A DNA stretch of 18,532 bases. It comes from a virus. Its lineage: Duplodnaviria > Heunggongvirae > Uroviricota > Caudoviricetes. The notes beneath the pieces were generated by a model, which saw nothing but the letters and a program-made list of their open reading frames with translations, had not been told where the DNA came from and ran no database searches. Positions within the stretch are counted from its first letter, which is position 1; every line of letters begins with the position of its first letter. Below, piece after piece: positions 11,319 through 18,473 of this stretch. The stretch lies in IMG/VR virus record IMGVR_UViG_2541047891_000001. The stretch is one strand, 5' to 3'. The position numbers and the translations under genes are program-made.

Positions 11319-11530
11319 CAGAACCTCGCCAGCCGGTACCCGGGATGCCCCCGTCGTCGTGTAATCAGAGCCGCAAGGCGGCGCTCCCACTCCTGCCGTC
11401 CCTGCCGGATCTCAGATAAGTTTTCCATGGTCATCTGCTGACCATTAAAGGTGACGGATTTTCCGTCCAGCACCGCCATTTCAGCTTCCGTATAACGCTG
11501 AATCATGGCTTCGATATCATTCTGGTTCAT
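11318..11530 (-). CDS. gpW-like head-tail joining protein
   Basis: 70 aa from the ATG at 11530-11528 (GGAGG 6 nt upstream), overlapping the terminase stop (ATGA). The C-terminal RRRGHPGY resembles the lambda W C-terminus (RRRGPAGF) as I recall it. Position between terminase and portal. Confidence 0.65.
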   Translation of the reverse strand: MNQNDIEAMIQRYTEAEMAVLDGKSVTFNGQQMTMENLSEIRQGRQEWERRLAALITRRRGHPGYRLARF

Positions 11531-13246
11531 AACCATCCTCCGGAAGTCAGCCAGGGGTTAACATCGTCAGTTACTGTTTTCTTCCGTTTTTGTTTTTTAA
11601 CAGGCGTGGATACCGGTTCCGGTGAGGGTGACGGTTCGGTACTGTCCGGGACACACTCCAGCCAGGTTTCCCGGCTCGCCCACTCCGGTGCATCCGGCCA
11701 GCGGATCTTTTCGTATCCATGCAGAATGACCAGAGCCTCGGCATACACCATCAGGTCAAAAGCTTCGTTGGCACCGCGACCCGGCTTACTCCATTTCCCG
11801 TCACTGCTCCGCTCTTCATACGTCAGTTCGTCGTAAAACCAGCTCCCCAGCCAGTCAGGGAAATGCACATAGCCGGGACCTGGCGAGTCACGCCATAACG
11901 CGTTATTCACCCGGTCTTTCAGTGCATCCGTCTGAAGAAGCCAGAGCGGCACATCACCTGCGGCCTGCGCCCGTCGGCCCGTTCGTCCGGTGTTATCAGG
12001 GAATGTACGGGTGATCAGTTTTGCGCGCCGGATGCTGTCGCCCTTAAACAGGTAAATACGTTTACCAAGGCCATCACGACGGCAACGACGCCAGAATTTA
12101 TAGGCATTATCAGTGACCCCGTCTTCACCGCCGGAGTCCACCGCCATTGCCATCAGTCGCATTTGTTGAGAAGGATCGGAGGCCAGCGGCCAGCTTTTAT
12201 GAAAAACATCCGTCAGCAGGACATCCCAGTCTTCCGGATAGCTGGCCGGATCAATTCGCTGGCTCTCCCCGTCGCAGTCACTGCGCAATGACTGCGTGAT
12301 ATTGTAACGATCAATAATCCAGCGTTCGCCACGACTGCCATAGCCCGTTACCTGAACCACAAAACGGCGATGACGTCCCGCCTGCACATCCACTGTCGCC
12401 ACAAGGAAATTAACGCCATCCGGCACACTGCAGGAAGGAACTGGCTCTGCCCGCTGCTCAAGCAGTTCACTTTTTCGTTGCTCCATGCTGGCACGAGGAA
12501 GATAAGGCAATCCCCAGTCGGTGTTGATAACCGCCCTGAGTGTTTCTTCGCTTCCTGTCGCTTCATACTCCTGTTCTGCAGTCAGTAATTTGTAAACCAG
12601 TTGCGCCCAGGTCTGATACGCAGCAGCTGGCCCTTCCATCCAGAAACTGGCGATACGGGAGCGGCGCGGTTCACCGGAAACGTTGCCGTTACGATCAATG
12701 ACCTGACCTTCACGCAACCAGACTCCTGCACTATTGAGCTCACGCTTTTTCTCCGCAGTGATAATGCCGCTGCAGTGCGGGCAAAGTAGATACGCCGCCT
12801 CACTGGCTTTAAAGGGATCCGGTTCATTACGGTAGCCGGTCATGGCATCCATAGCTGGCTGAAAATATTCACCGCAGTGCGGACATGGCCAGTACCAGCG
12901 GCGGCGGTCACCACGATTGTAAAGGGAAAGAATACCAGTCGTCGGTGGAGCTTCATGAGGCGACTTACGTCGCCATTTGCTGTCGCAGATGTCACGTCCC
13001 GGCGAGCTCTCCACCAGAGTCATCCCGGCGGACATAAATGTGGTGGTACGTTTTGAGGCCAGGGAGAAACCATCACCCTCGCTGTCGATATTCTCCGGAA
13101 AACGGTCGTAATCGGTTAAGGCGACAAACCGGTAATCCGACGATGACATAATGTTGACCGAGGGCCAACCAATTTTAAGGAACGAGCCATCCCTGAACGT
13201 CTTATCATGGACATTATTGTCGTTACGACGTGGACTCATTCTTTTC
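11527..13246 (-). pseudogene. Terminase large subunit (gpA-like), truncated at the 5' end by the IS66-family junction; N-terminal ATPase Walker A region missing
   Basis: The 570 aa ORF aligns with the lambda gpA region from the Walker-B-like segment (VALTDYDRF) through the CPHCG zinc motif and the nuclease domain. About 130-170 N-terminal residues are absent. The reading frame runs directly into the IS terminus at 13247. Confidence 0.8.
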
Positions 13247-15003
13247 GTAAGCGGCTCGTCAGAACCGTATTGATATTTACTGAGAGCTCAGATCAACTTT
13301 CCAGGGCAACAGATCGCGTACCCGGTTTGCCGGCCAGTCCTGGATATGTTCAATGACGTAGCGCAGCCATTTTTCTGGCTCCACATTGTTCAGACGGCAT
13401 GTGCCGATCAGCGAGTACAACACCGCCGCATGTTCGCCACCGCTGTCGGAACCTGCGAACAGCCAGTTTTTCCGGCCCACGGCCACACCCCGTAAGGCGT
13501 TCTCTGCGATGTTGTTGTCGATTTCCACCCAGCCATTACTGCAGTACACGTTCAGGGCCTCCCACTGTTTCAGCAGGTATGCGAACGCTTTTGCCGTATC
13601 TGAGTGACGCGACAGTGTTTTCATCTGTTGCTGTATCCAGTCATACAGTGACTGCATCAGTGGCGCGGCTCTGGCTTTTCTTGCCGCCAGACGCTGTTCT
13701 GCTGAACAGCCCCGGACCTCTGCCTCGATGGCATACAGTTCACCGATACGCTGCAGGGCTTCCGTGGTGATGTCGGTGGGCGCTCTTGCATGCACATCGT
13801 GGATTTTTCTCCGGGCATGAGCCATACACGCGGCTTCCGTTATTCTGCCGGATTCGTATAACGCCCGGTAACCACCGTAAGCATCGGCCTGAAGCACACC
13901 GCTGTAACCGGCCAGGTGATTTTGTGGATGGATACCTTTCCGGTCCGGACTGTACGCGAACCAGACCGCCGGGGGCATCTGTGAACCGGCGTTGCGGTCA
14001 TCACGGACGTAGACCCACAGCCGGGCTGTCCGGGTTTTACCGCTGCCCGGCTCCTGGACCGGGACGGGGATATCATCGGCATGGACTTTACCGGGCATCA
14101 GCACATACTGGCGCAGGACGTCATACAGCGGCTCCAGCAGTTCAGCAACAGCACCTGTCCAGCGCCCCAGTGTGGCACGGCTCAGCTCCACTCCCTGACG
14201 ACGGTATATTTCTGACTGGCGGTATAACGGCAGATGGTCTGCATATTTCCCGGTGACAACATGGGCCAGAAGCCCCGCTCCGGCATAACTGCGTGCAATG
14301 GGTTTTGAAGGTACTGGTGCCTGCACGATATGGTCGCACCGGCAACAGGCCAGTTTCGGACGTTGTATTTCGATAACCTTAAAGGCGCTGCTGATAAGCT
14401 CCAGTTGCTCTGACACATCACATCCCAGAGAACTGAGTTCACCACCACAGGCAGGACAGCATTCCTCTTCCGGCCGGATAACCCGGGTTTCACGGGGAAG
14501 TGAGGCCGGTAACGGTTTACGGGCTGAAGACTGGCGCAGGGCGGATGGCAGTACCGGGTCATATTGCTCACCCAGCGTTTCCGCCATTTCTTCCTGAAGT
14601 GCGCTGATTCGCTCCTGTGCTTCCTGTATCTGCCGTTCGGTTTTTGCACGAAGTTTTTCTGAGCTTTTACCGAACTGCATACGTTGCAGTTTCGCAACCA
14701 GCGCCTTCAGCCGGTTGATTTCGGAAGCATAAGCCGCCACCCGCTGTGAGAGCAGGCGGTTGTATTCAGCCATCTGGCGGATGGTGTCCTGTTGCGTCTG
14801 CAACAGTGCCCGCAGGCGGGCGTTCTCATGAGCAAGTGAGGTGTCCATATCCTCACTTTACAACGGGTTATATGCGGATTCCAGCGCGTTCCGTTCGTTT
14901 CGGGTGCTTCCAGTTGATACCTTCAAGAAGCATGGATAACTGAGCCGGAGTAAGGTGCACCTTGCCGTTACGGGTGACTGGCCAGACGAAGCGGCCCCGC
15001 TCC
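13247..15003 (-). mobile_element. Truncated IS66-family insertion sequence (3' end of tnpB, complete tnpC and one terminal repeat; tnpA, most of tnpB and the other terminus are absent)
   Basis: The terminus at 13247 reads GTAAGCGGCTCGTC inward on the plus strand, consistent with IS66-family ends as I recall them. tnpC is at 13277-14848. The tnpB C-terminal motif ([32 protein letters not shown]) is encoded at about 14868-15000. The upstream boundary (about 15003) is inferred from where cold-shock homology stops. Confidence 0.75.
13277..14848 (-). CDS. tnpC: IS66-family transposase TnpC
   Basis: 523 aa with an N-terminal leucine-zipper-like coiled coil, a zinc-finger segment (CCPACGG...CCRCDH), DDE-region motifs and a CMAHARRK motif, all characteristic of IS66 TnpC. 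ATG at 14848-14846. Confidence 0.85.
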
Positions 15004-15167
15004 ATAGAGAAGGTAACCTTTTGACCTTCAAATAAGGTTCGATAATTATCATTCTGAATCGCAGAAAAATGCACAAACACATCTTTACTACCATCAACAG
15101 GAGAAATAAAGCCGAAACCTTTATCAGCGTTAAACCATTTTACTAAACCAGTCATTTTATTTGACAT
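14868..15167 (-). pseudogene. Chimeric ORF: N-terminal ~54 aa of a CspB-like cold-shock protein fused in frame to the C-terminal ~45 aa of IS66 TnpB
   Basis: [54 protein letters not shown] is a cold-shock domain with RNP motifs. It is followed by [45 protein letters not shown], a TnpB C-terminus. ATG at 15167-15165 with AAGGA upstream. Confidence 0.7.
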
Positions 15168-15465
15168 TCTACATTCCTTAACTTGAGCCTTTCGGCATAA
15201 ATGGTTTGCATAACAGAAACGACTTCGTACTTAATTGGAGAGACTCAAAGAAGGAATAAGTGAATAACACCTGAAATGAGAACTGCTTTAGTAAACTACT
15301 TCGTATATCGTCTGTTCTTCAAACCGACGCAGTCATTAACTCATAGTTGAACATATGAAGCAATGTTTATTTTAGACATCCAGCCACCTTCAACCCTATC
15401 AAAAAAGTAGTTTTCTCCAGGAACGTGTGTATGGTGCACCAGGTTATCAGTATTAAGGAGTTTTT

Positions 15466-15842: not shown

Positions 15843-16595
15843 TTATCTCGTCACCTTCCTCAATTGCGCTTCCGCGTATGCTTCTTCCTGCCAGCACTTT
15901 GTTACCAGTTTATCAATGACGTCCGCATACCCCTTATACCACTGATAATCGGTCAGGTCTGGTACCAGCTTCTGGACATGACGTCGTGCCAGCGTGGTTG
16001 GTAAACGACTAAACCGGTTTCCATTACAACGCCCACAAATCTTATATACCGGTACGCCATGAAACCGGGTTCTTTTTTCATCCAGAACAATCCCTTTACC
16101 CTTACACCCTCTGCACGCTGTGCTGACTTCGCCCTTACCATGGCAATGCTGACATAGTTCCTTCACCCATTCTTCCTTGATTACAGATTCCCCGCGTCTG
16201 TAGTGTTTCACCACTTCGCGCAATACATTATAAAATCCCGTACCTGAACAATGCTCACAGCGAGCCTTACTTGCCGCAGACCTGGAGTAATCAGCAAAGG
16301 CAAAACTCACGAGGTAAGGAATAATCTGTAACCGGATTTCTTCACTCAATTTGTTCAATGTCGGGTTATCCAGTGCCATCGCGTAATTTAGCAGGCCTTC
16401 AATCGCAAACTGAGGGTCCTGAACACCAACTTTTGCCAGAAATAAGGCCAACCCAAGTGGTGCTTTCGACTGCACCATCCCCTGCGCTGCCATTACATCC
16501 GTAATTGTTAAACAACCGGTGCCTGTCGCTGGAGCGTCATCGCTCAATTTTGGAGATTTTGGGGAGTAATATTTTGGTAAGGCTTCAAGGTTCAT
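15843..16595 (-). CDS. Late antiterminator Q (phage 82 / Qin quuQ-type)
   Basis: About 250 aa from the ATG at 16595-16593 (GGAG 8 nt upstream). The N-terminus [20 protein letters not shown] and multiple CxxC zinc motifs ([30 protein letters not shown]) match the QuuQ/YdfT-type Q protein of E. coli Qin-like prophages as I recall it. Confidence 0.85.
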
Positions 16596-16608: not shown

Positions 16609-17697
16609 TTACGCCAGTACGCCAATTGCCAGCGCGCTATCGATAAAACGAAATATCAGCTCCAGTTGGGAGCCATACTTCTCTTCAAATGCCACTGTAT
16701 CCGTATGCAGCTCGTTGTGATGCTTTCTGCACAAAGGCAACACAAAGAGATCATGTGCTTTTGTTCCCATTCCGCCCTGCCCGTGACCAATCAGATGATG
16801 CGGATCGTCGGCTGGCATACCGCAGCAAGCACACGGCTGTGTCTTAACCCAACGTGTGTATTTCTCCTTAACCCAGCGGCGACGTTTAGGCAGCTTCATG
16901 AAAGATTCCGGAGACTCTGGATCAACGGTGATGCTTACCACCGTCTTTTCCTGTGGTGGTTTTTGTTGCTGGTAGGCGTAAGGCAACGGTGCAAGATTTT
17001 TTGTGCGTTGTTTCAATATGCTGGTGGCGGTCTGCTCTCCCGGTACGATGTCGCTTTCGCGGTACACCGAGCAGATTTTTTCCGCTGGTAATCCCAGCGA
17101 ACGACGCGATACAGCCTCAGGTAGTGCATCCACCACCTGATTGCAGACCGCCCACCAGGATAATTCAGCCAAAGATAATTCCCGCTCCTGCGTACCGCTT
17201 ATTGCGTGACGGATGACGTCAATCACCCATGCTGTCAGATTTTGTTGAGCAAGCAGATCCAGTGATTCCGATGTCTGGTCACGCAGTTGGTTGTCGCAGT
17301 GCCAACACAACACCATTGCGCCGGTACCATAACGGTGAATGACTGTTTCAGAGTGATGGTAATCGCCATTAGGCCACTGGCAGGATGTAACATGACGTAA
17401 TAGCCAGTCAGACAATGCGCCAACGCCGCCAGCAGCACGAATCACCCGTTCGTTACTAAAAAACGGCAGCAATGTTTTGTCTTCCACCAGCGGCTGGCGA
17501 ACGGCAGGAACAACTCCGGATGGCAGATTACGCATGCTTTTTGGTTCCGGTTCCACCAGCACTCGAGGATTATGAAATATCTGTATGGATTCACGGCCCG
17601 GCTTAAGGACCACCAGCCCAAGCTCAGGCACCAGAACAGGTCTAAGTAATACCCGCACGTTACCTCCAGATCCGTTGCTGGAAAGTGCGGGACGCAC
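16609..17697 (-). CDS. DUF968 / YdfU-like protein with a C-terminal HNH-like zinc-finger motif
   Basis: The C-terminus CACCGMPADDPHHLIGHGQGG...NDLFVLPLCRKHHNELH has an HNH nuclease-like signature. Synteny (upstream of Q, downstream of rem) matches ydfU of Qin. The ORF-track start at 17697 is GTG, so the true start is uncertain; the first in-frame ATG is at 17535. Confidence 0.7.
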   Translation of the reverse strand: MRPALSSNGSGGNVRVLLRPVLVPELGLVVLKPGRESIQIFHNPRVLVEPEPKSMRNLPSGVVPAVRQPLVEDKTLLPFFSNERVIRAAGGVGALSDWLLRHVTSCQWPNGDYHHSETVIHRYGTGAMVLCWHCDNQLRDQTSESLDLLAQQNLTAWVIDVIRHAISGTQERELSLAELSWWAVCNQVVDALPEAVSRRSLGLPAEKICSVYRESDIVPGEQTATSILKQRTKNLAPLPYAYQQQKPPQEKTVVSITVDPESPESFMKLPKRRRWVKEKYTRWVKTQPCACCGMPADDPHHLIGHGQGGMGTKAHDLFVLPLCRKHHNELHTDTVAFEEKYGSQLELIFRFIDSALAIGVLA

Positions 17698-17938
17698 GTG
17701 GTGGGCGTTCGGAGTAAGGCAATCTGACTGAGATTATCCAGTGACGGTAGTCGAGGCTAAGGGCTTTCTTAACCTCGTATCCGCGCCTGCGGTAACACTG
17801 AATTATCCATTCAGCCTGCTCTTCAGTGCATGGAGGGTGTTGGAACCATTCAGACTTGAATGCGTGAGAATACCGCTCGTGCGTGCAGACAAGAACGGGC
17901 GAATTATCAGAATTGTAATATTTTACGTTGCGTGCCAT
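17660..17938 (-). CDS. Hypothetical small protein (92 aa), 3' end overlapping the DUF968 ORF
   Basis: ATG at 17938-17936 with GGAG 7 nt upstream. Cys/His-containing N-terminal half (VLVCTHERYSH...HPPCTEEQAEW). I do not recognise the family. Confidence 0.4.
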   Translation of the reverse strand: MARNVKYYNSDNSPVLVCTHERYSHAFKSEWFQHPPCTEEQAEWIIQCYRRRGYEVKKALSLDYRHWIISVRLPYSERPPRASRTFQQRIWR

Positions 17939-18004
17939 CGGTTTTCTCCGGTGGCACGGTGTTACTCAGCGGGAGTTCAGCCCCGCGCAAGATTGTAGAT
18001 GAGT

Positions 18005-18256
18005 TTATTCTTCTGCAAAAGCTGAAAAGCCTGCTTTTATTCCGATCTCTTTCAGTGCCTGTAATGAAGTGACAAACTCACCTTCGCGCAAGATAAATCC
18101 GTCCGTGACTCGAGCATCCACAAAATTAATTAACGCAGCCCCATTCTTTCGCAAACACAGAATGCGGTAATGACTAACAATGTTTCCATTTTCAACGCAC
18201 ACAGCATAGAGGCCATCTTCACAAAAAATTTTACGCAGTTCTTCGATGTTCATCAT
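18005..18256 (-). CDS. rem: Rem-like small protein (83 aa, unknown function)
   Basis: 83 aa ORF (MMNIEELRKIFCEDGLYAVCVENG...) between the DUF968 gene and hok, as for rem in the Qin prophage. The sequence match is from memory only. Confidence 0.55.
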   Translation of the reverse strand: MMNIEELRKIFCEDGLYAVCVENGNIVSHYRILCLRKNGAALINFVDARVTDGFILREGEFVTSLQALKEIGIKAGFSAFAEE

Positions 18257-18334: not shown

Positions 18335-18364
18335 ATTCTATTCCGGCACCGTCCAGAACTTCAA
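18335..18364 (-). promoter_or_regulatory. Candidate promoter for rem
   Basis: On the minus strand: TTGAAG (-35), an 18 nt spacer, then TAGAAT (-10), about 80 nt upstream of the rem ATG. Confidence 0.25.
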
Positions 18365-18371
18365 ACGCGTT

Positions 18372-18402
18372 GAAAATAAAAACAAAAACCCGCCGAAGCG
18401 GG
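18372..18402 (-). terminator. Intrinsic terminator at the 3' end of the hok transcript
   Basis: Minus strand reads CCCGCTTCGGCGGG (GC stem with TTCG loop) followed by TTTTTGTTTTTATTTT, about 70 nt downstream of the hok stop. Confidence 0.55.
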
Positions 18403-18473
18403 TTAAGTGCGGGTGCGTTGAGGATGCCTGTCACATCAGAGGTGGCGAGGGATTTCTCCCTCGCCGGGTCTCT

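Follow-up and report, generated by a model that had tools for sequence, protein, structure and literature searches.

The window analysed here is the whole of an 18,532-nucleotide (nt) stretch of viral DNA (IMG/VR record IMGVR_UViG_2541047891_000001), a defective Qin-type lambdoid prophage of Escherichia coli with 99.9% identity to public genomes. Within its nin-equivalent region, two adjoining minus-strand genes were studied: ydfU (16609..17658), encoding a DUF968 protein of 349 amino acids (aa) with a predicted C-terminal His-Me (HNH) finger, and a small gene (17660..17938) encoding a 92-aa protein of the PHROG 1212 family. They are two separate genes that behave as a tightly coupled unit. 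It is probable, if well short of certain, that they are best explained as coupled nin-region genes of which YdfU is a recombination nuclease. The gene structure and the fold class of YdfU can be stated with high confidence, and its substrate and role are proposed tentatively. YdfU belongs to the uncharacterised "y-ome" of strain K-12 and is found in roughly half of complete E. coli genomes, and a firm function for it would be useful. The finding is real but ordinary, a known and widespread prophage gene with a genuine small neighbour, and YdfU, if confirmed, would be the expected kind of phage recombination nuclease.

Boundaries and coupling of ydfU and the small gene

The maximal open reading frames (ORFs) have 362 codons (16609-17697, minus) and 92 codons (17660-17938, minus), and a preliminary description of this DNA had reported the small ORF as overlapping the 5' end of ydfU, with a ydfU start at either GTG 17697 or ATG 17535. 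That overlap is an artefact of choosing the longest ORF. In RefSeq, both for this locus and for K-12, ydfU starts at GTG 17658. Moreover, full-length YdfU homologues with unrelated genes ahead of them (in mEp460, Yersinia phage YeP3, Vibrio phage Her and P1 PdcB) align from identical first residues, MR(A/V)LL. This start falls after the stop codon of the small gene (TAA 17660-17662), from which a single base separates it, and the genes do not overlap. The start at 17697 belongs to an older annotation (P76162 is still given as 362 aa in the P1 record), and a start at ATG 17535 would cut off 41 conserved residues. The gene boundaries are now corrected: those of ydfU rest on Pfam, PHROG 96, the RefSeq coordinates and homologue N-termini, and those of the small gene on the ORF list, PGAP annotation, the profile match and homologues.

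The minus-strand junction reads ...ATC TGG AGG TAA c GTG CGG..., and the final two sense codons of the small gene contain the GGAGG ribosome-binding site of ydfU (17663..17667, minus). The junction, TGGAGGTAAcGTG, is identical in 78/78 Qin-type loci with complete downstream sequence, which bears out the two-gene unit also considered in the preliminary description. As the small gene ends in codons that form the Shine-Dalgarno sequence of ydfU, this design is expected to couple the translation of both genes. The small gene has its own good ribosome-binding site, as had been noted: GGAG (17946..17949, minus) lies 7 nt before ATG 17938, and both are conserved in variant loci.

On sequence grounds the small ORF is a genuine gene, since it matches PHROG 1212 in full length (E=1.8e-35, residues 27-92 against profile positions 1-66 of 66), has hundreds of homologues, and contains a core with a ratio of nonsynonymous to synonymous substitution (dN/dS) of 0.08 and a predicted local distance difference test score (pLDDT) above 90 in AlphaFold2. 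PHROG 1212 is an enterobacterial phage family whose members normally have 66-69 aa. In E. coli, Shigella, E. albertii and E. marmotae 141 close relatives of the protein were found, and distant relatives of 66-69 aa are known from Gifsy-1/2, mEp237, SPN3UB and phages of Klebsiella, Enterobacter, Cronobacter, Hafnia, Edwardsiella and Erwinia; others occur in the linear-plasmid phages N15 and PY54. Gifsy-2 STM1021.1n, mEp237 gp51, PY54 ORF47 and the N15 "orf QD1" share 33-47% identity with its core and tail. Conservation of the ORF outside this locus, a point on which the preliminary description had made its reading depend, is therefore clear from the PHROG match and the many phage homologues.

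Three segments were distinguished in a model built with 35 family members and by dN/dS values computed from 29 distinct 92-codon alleles. The core (codons 27-75; 17714..17860, minus) is predicted as beta-alpha-beta-beta (strands 28-33, 56-60 and 67-75, helix 39-52), with conserved columns W31, H34, C37, T38, Q41, A42, Y49, G53, L73 and P74; its dN/dS value places it under strong purifying selection. The basic tail (codons 76-92; 17663..17713, minus), ending ...TFQQRIWR, has an isoelectric point (pI) of 12, a dN/dS of 0.13 and a short modelled helix at 84-91, and its sequence is kept in N15 and PY54. The N-terminal extension (codons 1-26; 17861..17938, minus) is predicted to be disordered (pLDDT ~40) and has a dN/dS of 2.2.

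This extension of 24-26 aa is specific to the Qin type, being absent from the 66-69-aa forms, and is highly variable among E. coli alleles. Since no in-frame start codon lies closer to the core than ATG 17938, the extension appears to serve solely as a source of the start codon. In the Qin type the ancestral start may have been lost, and translation would now begin 26 codons upstream, producing an unconstrained, disordered leader. Judged by its substitutions, the extension evolves without constraint at the protein level, and this relaxed constraint accounts for its dN/dS of ~2.2. However, the synonymous divergence (pS) of the first 26 codons is 0.035 against 0.36 in the core. This tenfold lower value suggests that the history of the extension differs from that of the core and is more recent, perhaps in connection with the rem-proximal module or with a role at the RNA level, such as the Rho terminator.

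The small ORF had been described as a Cys/His protein, a label that does not hold. Residues C18, H20 and H25 fall in the variable disordered extension, and H34 and C37, near-invariant in the enterobacterial proteins, are Q and M in N15 and PY54; a metal-binding motif was therefore rejected. The small protein has no match in Pfam (none at E<=0.1), NCBIfam or PADLOC, and no similarity to lambda NinD, NinE, NinF or NinH (hhalign probabilities 0.07-0.16%). Foldseek of its model against viral models returned N15 QD1 as the sole match. Sequence and profile searches of the Protein Data Bank (PDB) gave nothing for either protein, save non-significant SH2 matches for the small one; these Tec-family matches (E=0.4-0.6) were not upheld on checking, and the protein is not assigned to that domain family.

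The predicted His-Me finger of YdfU and its relatives

YdfU belongs to Pfam family DUF968 (PF06147), which it matches with 256 bits against a cutoff of 27.8 (E=1.9e-76, residues 160-346 of 349), and the 36 diverse homologues collected here all match it too. In addition, YdfU matches PHROG 96, "HNH endonuclease", over its full length (E=7e-171), and has sub-threshold Pfam matches to HNHc_6 and RecA_dep_nuc; NCBIfam and PADLOC returned no match for it. Among 1.84 billion cluster representatives, 4191 relatives were found at E<=1e-3 and 125 at E<=1e-30. Several database forms were set aside. Variants of 379-449 aa carry internal duplications typical of assembly errors. Many entries of the representative library join the YdfU N-terminus to tail-tip, portal, capsid or tail-fibre pieces (P0316, P0321, P0337, P0348, P0362, P0363, P0410) or have internal duplications (P0199, P0200, P0205, P0269), and they appear to be chimeric prophage assemblies.

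The core of the finger (residues 276-318; 16705..16833, minus) comprises a CxxC, an HH pair, a Gly-rich loop, D303 and a CxxHHNxxH motif, giving the signature C276xxC279 ... H287H288 ... D303 ... C310xxH313H314N ... H318. Conservation was counted over 36 aligned full-length members, with identities as low as 26%. The histidines of D285-P-H287-H288 are kept in 31/36 (H287) and 32/36 (H288) sequences, the exceptions being the PdcB clade, and D303 in all 36. In the motif C310-R-K-H-H-N-E-L-H, both H314 and H318 are present in 31/36 and position 315 is D/N in 19/36 (N315 in YdfU); the placing of H314 and H318 on a helix (311-319) rests on a low-confidence AlphaFold2 model. The residues of the putative structural zinc site are likewise conserved (C276 36/36, C279 28/36, C310 30/36, C or H at position 313 in 28/36). 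The HNH-type signature pointed out in the preliminary description is therefore present and conserved across the family, with its presumed catalytic histidine kept outside the PdcB clade. The AlphaFold2 model of YdfU, built with 15 homologues, has a mean pLDDT of 43 and is unusable for the N-terminal domain.

Profile comparison (hhalign) of the YdfU C-terminal domain gave a probability of 79.5% (E=1.5e-5) with a YbcO-type protein and 64% (E=6.6e-5) with P1 Ref, in agreement with the published placement of YdfU together with YbcO in His-Me finger group 7 (Jablonska 2017, PMC5714182). A zinc-finger HNH motif had been noted earlier for DUF968 proteins (Curtis 2014, PMC4118853), and the HNH assignment of YdfU, already published and present in PHROGs, is not new. 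YbcO (DUF1364, PF07102; structure 3g27), known from prophage DLP12 and phage 82-type nin regions, aligns with YdfU over 80 residues of the finger, including the Gly-rich loop and the CxxH helix, and also occupies the slot after the small gene. At ~96 aa it is the finger alone, whereas YdfU adds ~250 N-terminal residues with a second Cys/His cluster. Neither YdfU nor its 35 homologues match the Pfam YbcO family, on which a true YbcO (mEp237 gp52) scores 143 bits. The hhalign value and the published grouping (PMC5714182) indicate, by sequence, a sister relationship between YdfU and YbcO and not membership.

P1 Ref, a RecA-dependent HNH nuclease (PF16786, 3plw), carries CxxC ... HH ... PLCxxHH in the same register as YdfU, and the two proteins are each associated with recombination in phages. 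The N-terminus of Ref is basic and disordered, whereas YdfU has an N-domain of its own; moreover, YdfU falls below the threshold of the Ref family (18.3 bits against a cutoff of 26.9), and a weak match was seen in 1/36 homologues. Here too the hhalign value speaks for relatedness and not for membership.

A second relative in P1, PdcB, is a full-length homologue with 26-27% identity over residues 32-348, the N-terminal Cys/His cluster included. Its clade (P1 pdcB, L009 2405-3448; P0370, P0375, P0383) retains the two Cys clusters, whereas the HH pair, Gly-rich loop and helix histidines have disappeared, and its members are probably catalytically dead HNH proteins. The P1 gene follows phd-doc-pdcA, outside any nin region. 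PdcA was considered as a counterpart of the small protein and rejected, the two being unrelated.

The best conserved feature of the whole family lies in the N-terminal part of YdfU, in residues 1-160, which are outside the Pfam DUF968 model. It is a putative zinc site at residues 93-123 (17290..17382, minus), C93-x7-[H/C]101-x16-C118-W-x-[C/H]121-D-N, in which C93 and C118 are kept in 36/36 sequences, C or H at position 101 in 35/36, W119 in 35/36, H or C at position 121 in 36/36 and D122 in 33/36. This strictly conserved and unnamed cluster is here identified in the YdfU/PdcB family. Its residues suggest that it probably binds zinc and serves the binding of DNA or of a partner. A lambda Orf-like N-terminal domain has been reported for Gram-positive DUF968 proteins (Curtis, PMC4118853). 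In YdfU such an Orf/NinB-like domain was rejected: a 36-sequence profile of the region gave an hhalign probability of 0.09% with lambda Orf/NinB, and there was no Pfam NinB match. Alignment of residues 60-160 with 250-349 made C93/C276, H101/H287, C118/C310 and C121/H313 colinear, at a non-significant level (E=0.016, probability 2.8%), and the N-domain against Ref was not significant either (9.7%, E=0.0033). From these comparisons an internal duplication within YdfU is possible.

The slot after the small gene and the proposed role of YdfU

The gene downstream of the small gene was recorded in 79 Qin-type viral contigs, 72 short-form viral contigs and 44 species-representative loci (Citrobacter, Kluyvera, Klebsiella, Enterobacter, Leclercia, Yokenella, Siccibacter, Kosakonia and others); these samples are dominated by related lambdoid prophages, and the loci are not independent. 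The Qin-type small gene is paired with YdfU, which follows in 78/78 contigs with complete sequence, always 1 nt after the stop, whereas the short forms precede NinG, RusA or YbcO. Downstream of the short forms in viral contigs we found NinG in 49, YbcO in 14, a Cys-rich 158-aa ORF without Pfam match in 6 and other genes in 3. The representative genomes had NinG in 18 loci, RusA in 13, YbcO in 7, YdfU in 1 and other genes in 5, among them one uncalled HNH-like ORF and one NinG fusion. About 90% of the sampled loci carry a recombination nuclease directly downstream. Individual examples are NinG in Gifsy-2, YbcO and then RusA in mEp237, an RNase T-like exonuclease in N15 and an unknown ORF in PY54.

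The junction itself is also shared. Its common form is ...TGG GGG TGA nn ATG/GTG, that is, W-G/R-stop with a start 1-2 nt later (TGG AGG TAA c GTG in the Qin type), and equivalent TGGGGGTGAnnATG/GTG junctions precede NinG, RusA and YbcO; the small gene's terminal Trp-Gly/Arg-stop codons also provide the nuclease gene with its ribosome-binding site. As this design is shared before NinG/Rap, RusA, YbcO and YdfU, the 3' end of the small gene would mark a nuclease-exchange slot. From position we infer that genes of the mosaic nin region are exchanged at this fixed point, with YdfU as one of four alternative occupants. An exchange point before four different recombination nucleases gives a concrete hypothesis for YdfU.

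In six IMG/VR loci (e.g. L152 3153-3629) the slot is filled by the Cys-rich protein of 140-158 aa (MAKSAKCLFCGNP...HH...CAECG...CPLCEDLH; no Pfam match), which could represent a further zinc-finger nuclease family.

Lambda NinG/Rap and RusA are junction-specific endonucleases that occupy the same position as YdfU, after the small gene or just upstream of Q, and a functional analogy may be drawn from this. It is not one of close kinship: beyond the shared superfamily no homology to NinG was detected, YdfU having no Pfam match to NinG/Rap (PF05766) and hhalign probabilities of 2.3% for Gifsy-2 NinG and 4.8% for lambda NinG, and RusA has a different fold and can co-occur with YdfU. Based on its homology to YbcO and Ref, the proteins it most resembles, together with its slot position, we propose a role for YdfU on recombination or replication intermediates. 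YdfU would be a zinc-stabilised His-Me (HNH) finger endonuclease, with H287/H288 as metal ligand and general base and H314/H318 on the helix as further metal ligands, and would most likely cut branched DNA or other recombination or replication intermediates in lytic growth, in the manner of Rap and RusA, which act from that position.

In a published survey of K-12, the terminator upstream of ydfU is among the strongest Rho-dependent terminators of that strain (PMC9160355), and when Rho is impaired ydfU rises by 1.4-2.8 log2 with rem nearly unchanged at ~0-0.5 (PMC9160355 supplement). On these values the terminator lies between rem and ydfU, in the stretch of the small ORF. This behaviour is as expected of a nin-region terminator that is overridden only in lytic growth, and in the lysogen both the small gene and ydfU are silenced by it.

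Several observations weigh against this explanation. First, Rho termination in or near the small ORF implies that it is poorly translated, at least without induction, and the K-12 data suggest as much for uninduced cells. Second, near-identical alleles of the small protein pair with different downstream genes (NinG, YbcO or the Cys-rich ORF), so there is no partner-specific co-evolution, which speaks against a specific physical partnership. Third, YdfU co-occurs with RusA, which lies two genes upstream, in mEp460 and YeP3, and therefore is not simply a resolvase replacement. Moreover, synteny in a mosaic region may reflect inherited order and not shared function. Finally, the literature searched contained no experimental report of nuclease activity for YdfU, YbcO or any DUF968 protein.

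The same shuffling of alleles relative to downstream genes is what would be expected if the small protein had an independent nin-region function, for instance binding DNA or a host factor, at a fixed map position, its 3' end being a conserved recombination joint. The basic tail with its pI of 12 and the conserved junction sequence fit this explanation, as do the N15 and PY54 members, which stand beside an RNase T-like exonuclease and an RdgC-like gene instead. The presence of a recombination nuclease directly downstream in ~90% of the sampled loci goes beyond a loose association, with the caveat on non-independent loci already given. We regard an independent function as having close to an even chance of being correct.

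It is rather unlikely, by our estimate, that the small protein serves the lambdoid junction-nuclease slot as a general cofactor, or that the N-cluster of YdfU ("LCWHHDN") is a degenerate second His-Me finger. In the first case the small protein would, for example, target branched DNA or a host recombination protein for whichever nuclease follows (Rap, RusA, YbcO or YdfU); in the second, the cluster would derive from an internal duplication and now serve substrate recognition. Either, if true, would constitute a new accessory component of phage recombination, encoded by a gene missing from the K-12 annotation.

HNH proteins in other phages act in packaging or defence, and YdfU might accordingly not act in recombination at all: it could be a packaging-associated protein such as HK97 gp74, or serve the prophage in defence or anti-defence as a nuclease directed at foreign or host DNA. 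The retention of the locus in 2511/5426 complete E. coli genomes, even in defective prophages, could reflect selection on the host. However, ydfU lies upstream of Q and away from the terminase genes, and the lambda-type gpA terminase of the prophage brings a nuclease domain of its own; there is no PADLOC match, and Rho silencing in the lysogen fits poorly with constitutive defence. These alternatives, taken together, have only a small chance of being right.

More improbable still is a nuclease paired with a dedicated inhibitor or immunity protein, on the model of colicin DNase/Im or toxin-antitoxin pairs; the small protein would then bind YdfU and hold it in check until required. Translational coupling is tight with the small gene first, and the small gene stands constantly beside a nuclease gene. 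However, its near-identical alleles also precede NinG, YbcO and the Cys-rich ORF, the family precedes RusA, a different fold, and YdfU homologues are also found where it is absent (in mEp460 and YeP3 they follow a KilA-N gene, in P1 pdcA). Indeed, neither the partner-specific co-variation nor the obligatory co-occurrence of such pairs was found. There is no PADLOC match and no likeness to known immunity proteins, a lone CdiI match (E=1.3) being noise. Some phage records label the small ORF "toxin to Rem", an automatic label with no evidence behind it.

The other suggestion of the preliminary description, that the small ORF and ydfU are halves of one frameshifted gene or that the small ORF extends ydfU at its 5' end, is ruled out for practical purposes: the ORFs abut and in one 438-aa database protein (P0218) a short deletion at the junction joins them into one chain, but this is a lone sequence, on one contig, among thousands of sequences, the stop and the GTG are kept in all 78 Qin-type loci, the small protein is an independent 66-69-aa family that precedes NinG, RusA, YbcO and other genes, and full-length homologues of YdfU begin at the identical MR(A/V)LL, behind unrelated genes and without the small protein.

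Genomic setting and K-12 annotation

The ~1.9 kb around both genes is 99.9% identical to many E. coli chromosomes, and the figure of 2511/5426 complete genomes given above refers to this 1.9-kb locus at >=80% coverage. The minus-strand order per RefSeq is hokD, rem, a 92-aa "hypothetical protein", ydfU ("DUF968 domain-containing protein", 349 aa) and ydfT. The upstream neighbour rem (18005..18256, minus) is assigned by annotation and PHROG 340. Downstream, ydfT (15843..16595, minus) is a Q-type late antiterminator (annotation; Pfam Antiterm, E=9.5e-55) that begins 13 nt past the ydfU stop, and the DUF968 gene is indeed located directly upstream of Q in a nin-equivalent region, as first described.

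The same gene in the Qin prophage of K-12 (YdfU, b1560, P76162) has 349 aa, ~97% protein identity and the same neighbours, rem and ydfT. Nothing of substance differs between the two loci, and the copy in the window is further degraded downstream by an IS66-associated deletion. K-12 MG1655 also carries the intact 92-codon ORF (NC_000913.3 ~1644306-1644584, minus; L172 2807-3085), but its RefSeq record leaves the 346 bp between ydfU and rem without any feature, whereas for other strains RefSeq gives the small gene as a "hypothetical protein", WP_023140913. This conserved 92-codon gene should enter the K-12 annotation.

The partial IS66 element that interrupts the prophage lies at 13277-15170 (minus). 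Its TnpC transposase occupies 13277-14848, and at 14868-15167 a fragment from the C-terminus of IS66 Orf2 reads in frame into a truncated cold-shock gene. The large terminase subunit (11527-13239) begins at position 97 of the ATPase-domain profile, and the lysis genes of strain 746, the closest public genome, are missing. This interruption, the shortened terminase and the missing lysis genes indicate that the prophage copy is defective. An Rfam cspA thermoregulator (136.7 bits; 14951-15328, minus) precedes the truncated csp gene downstream of Q.

Upstream of the two genes, the interval from the small gene to rem contains a GC hairpin of 5 bp that lacks a T-run (17969-17986), a promoter-like site stands ahead of rem (18335-18364), and a hairpin with a T-run, resembling an intrinsic terminator, comes after the hokD end of the window (18387-18404, minus). 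Outside the window, the region upstream of hokD in strain 746, which separates it from the replication genes (L001 11637-13276), contains a Kiwa KwaB-like gene, a QueH-like gene and others, which suggests that a variable accessory or defence island adjoins the locus in that strain.

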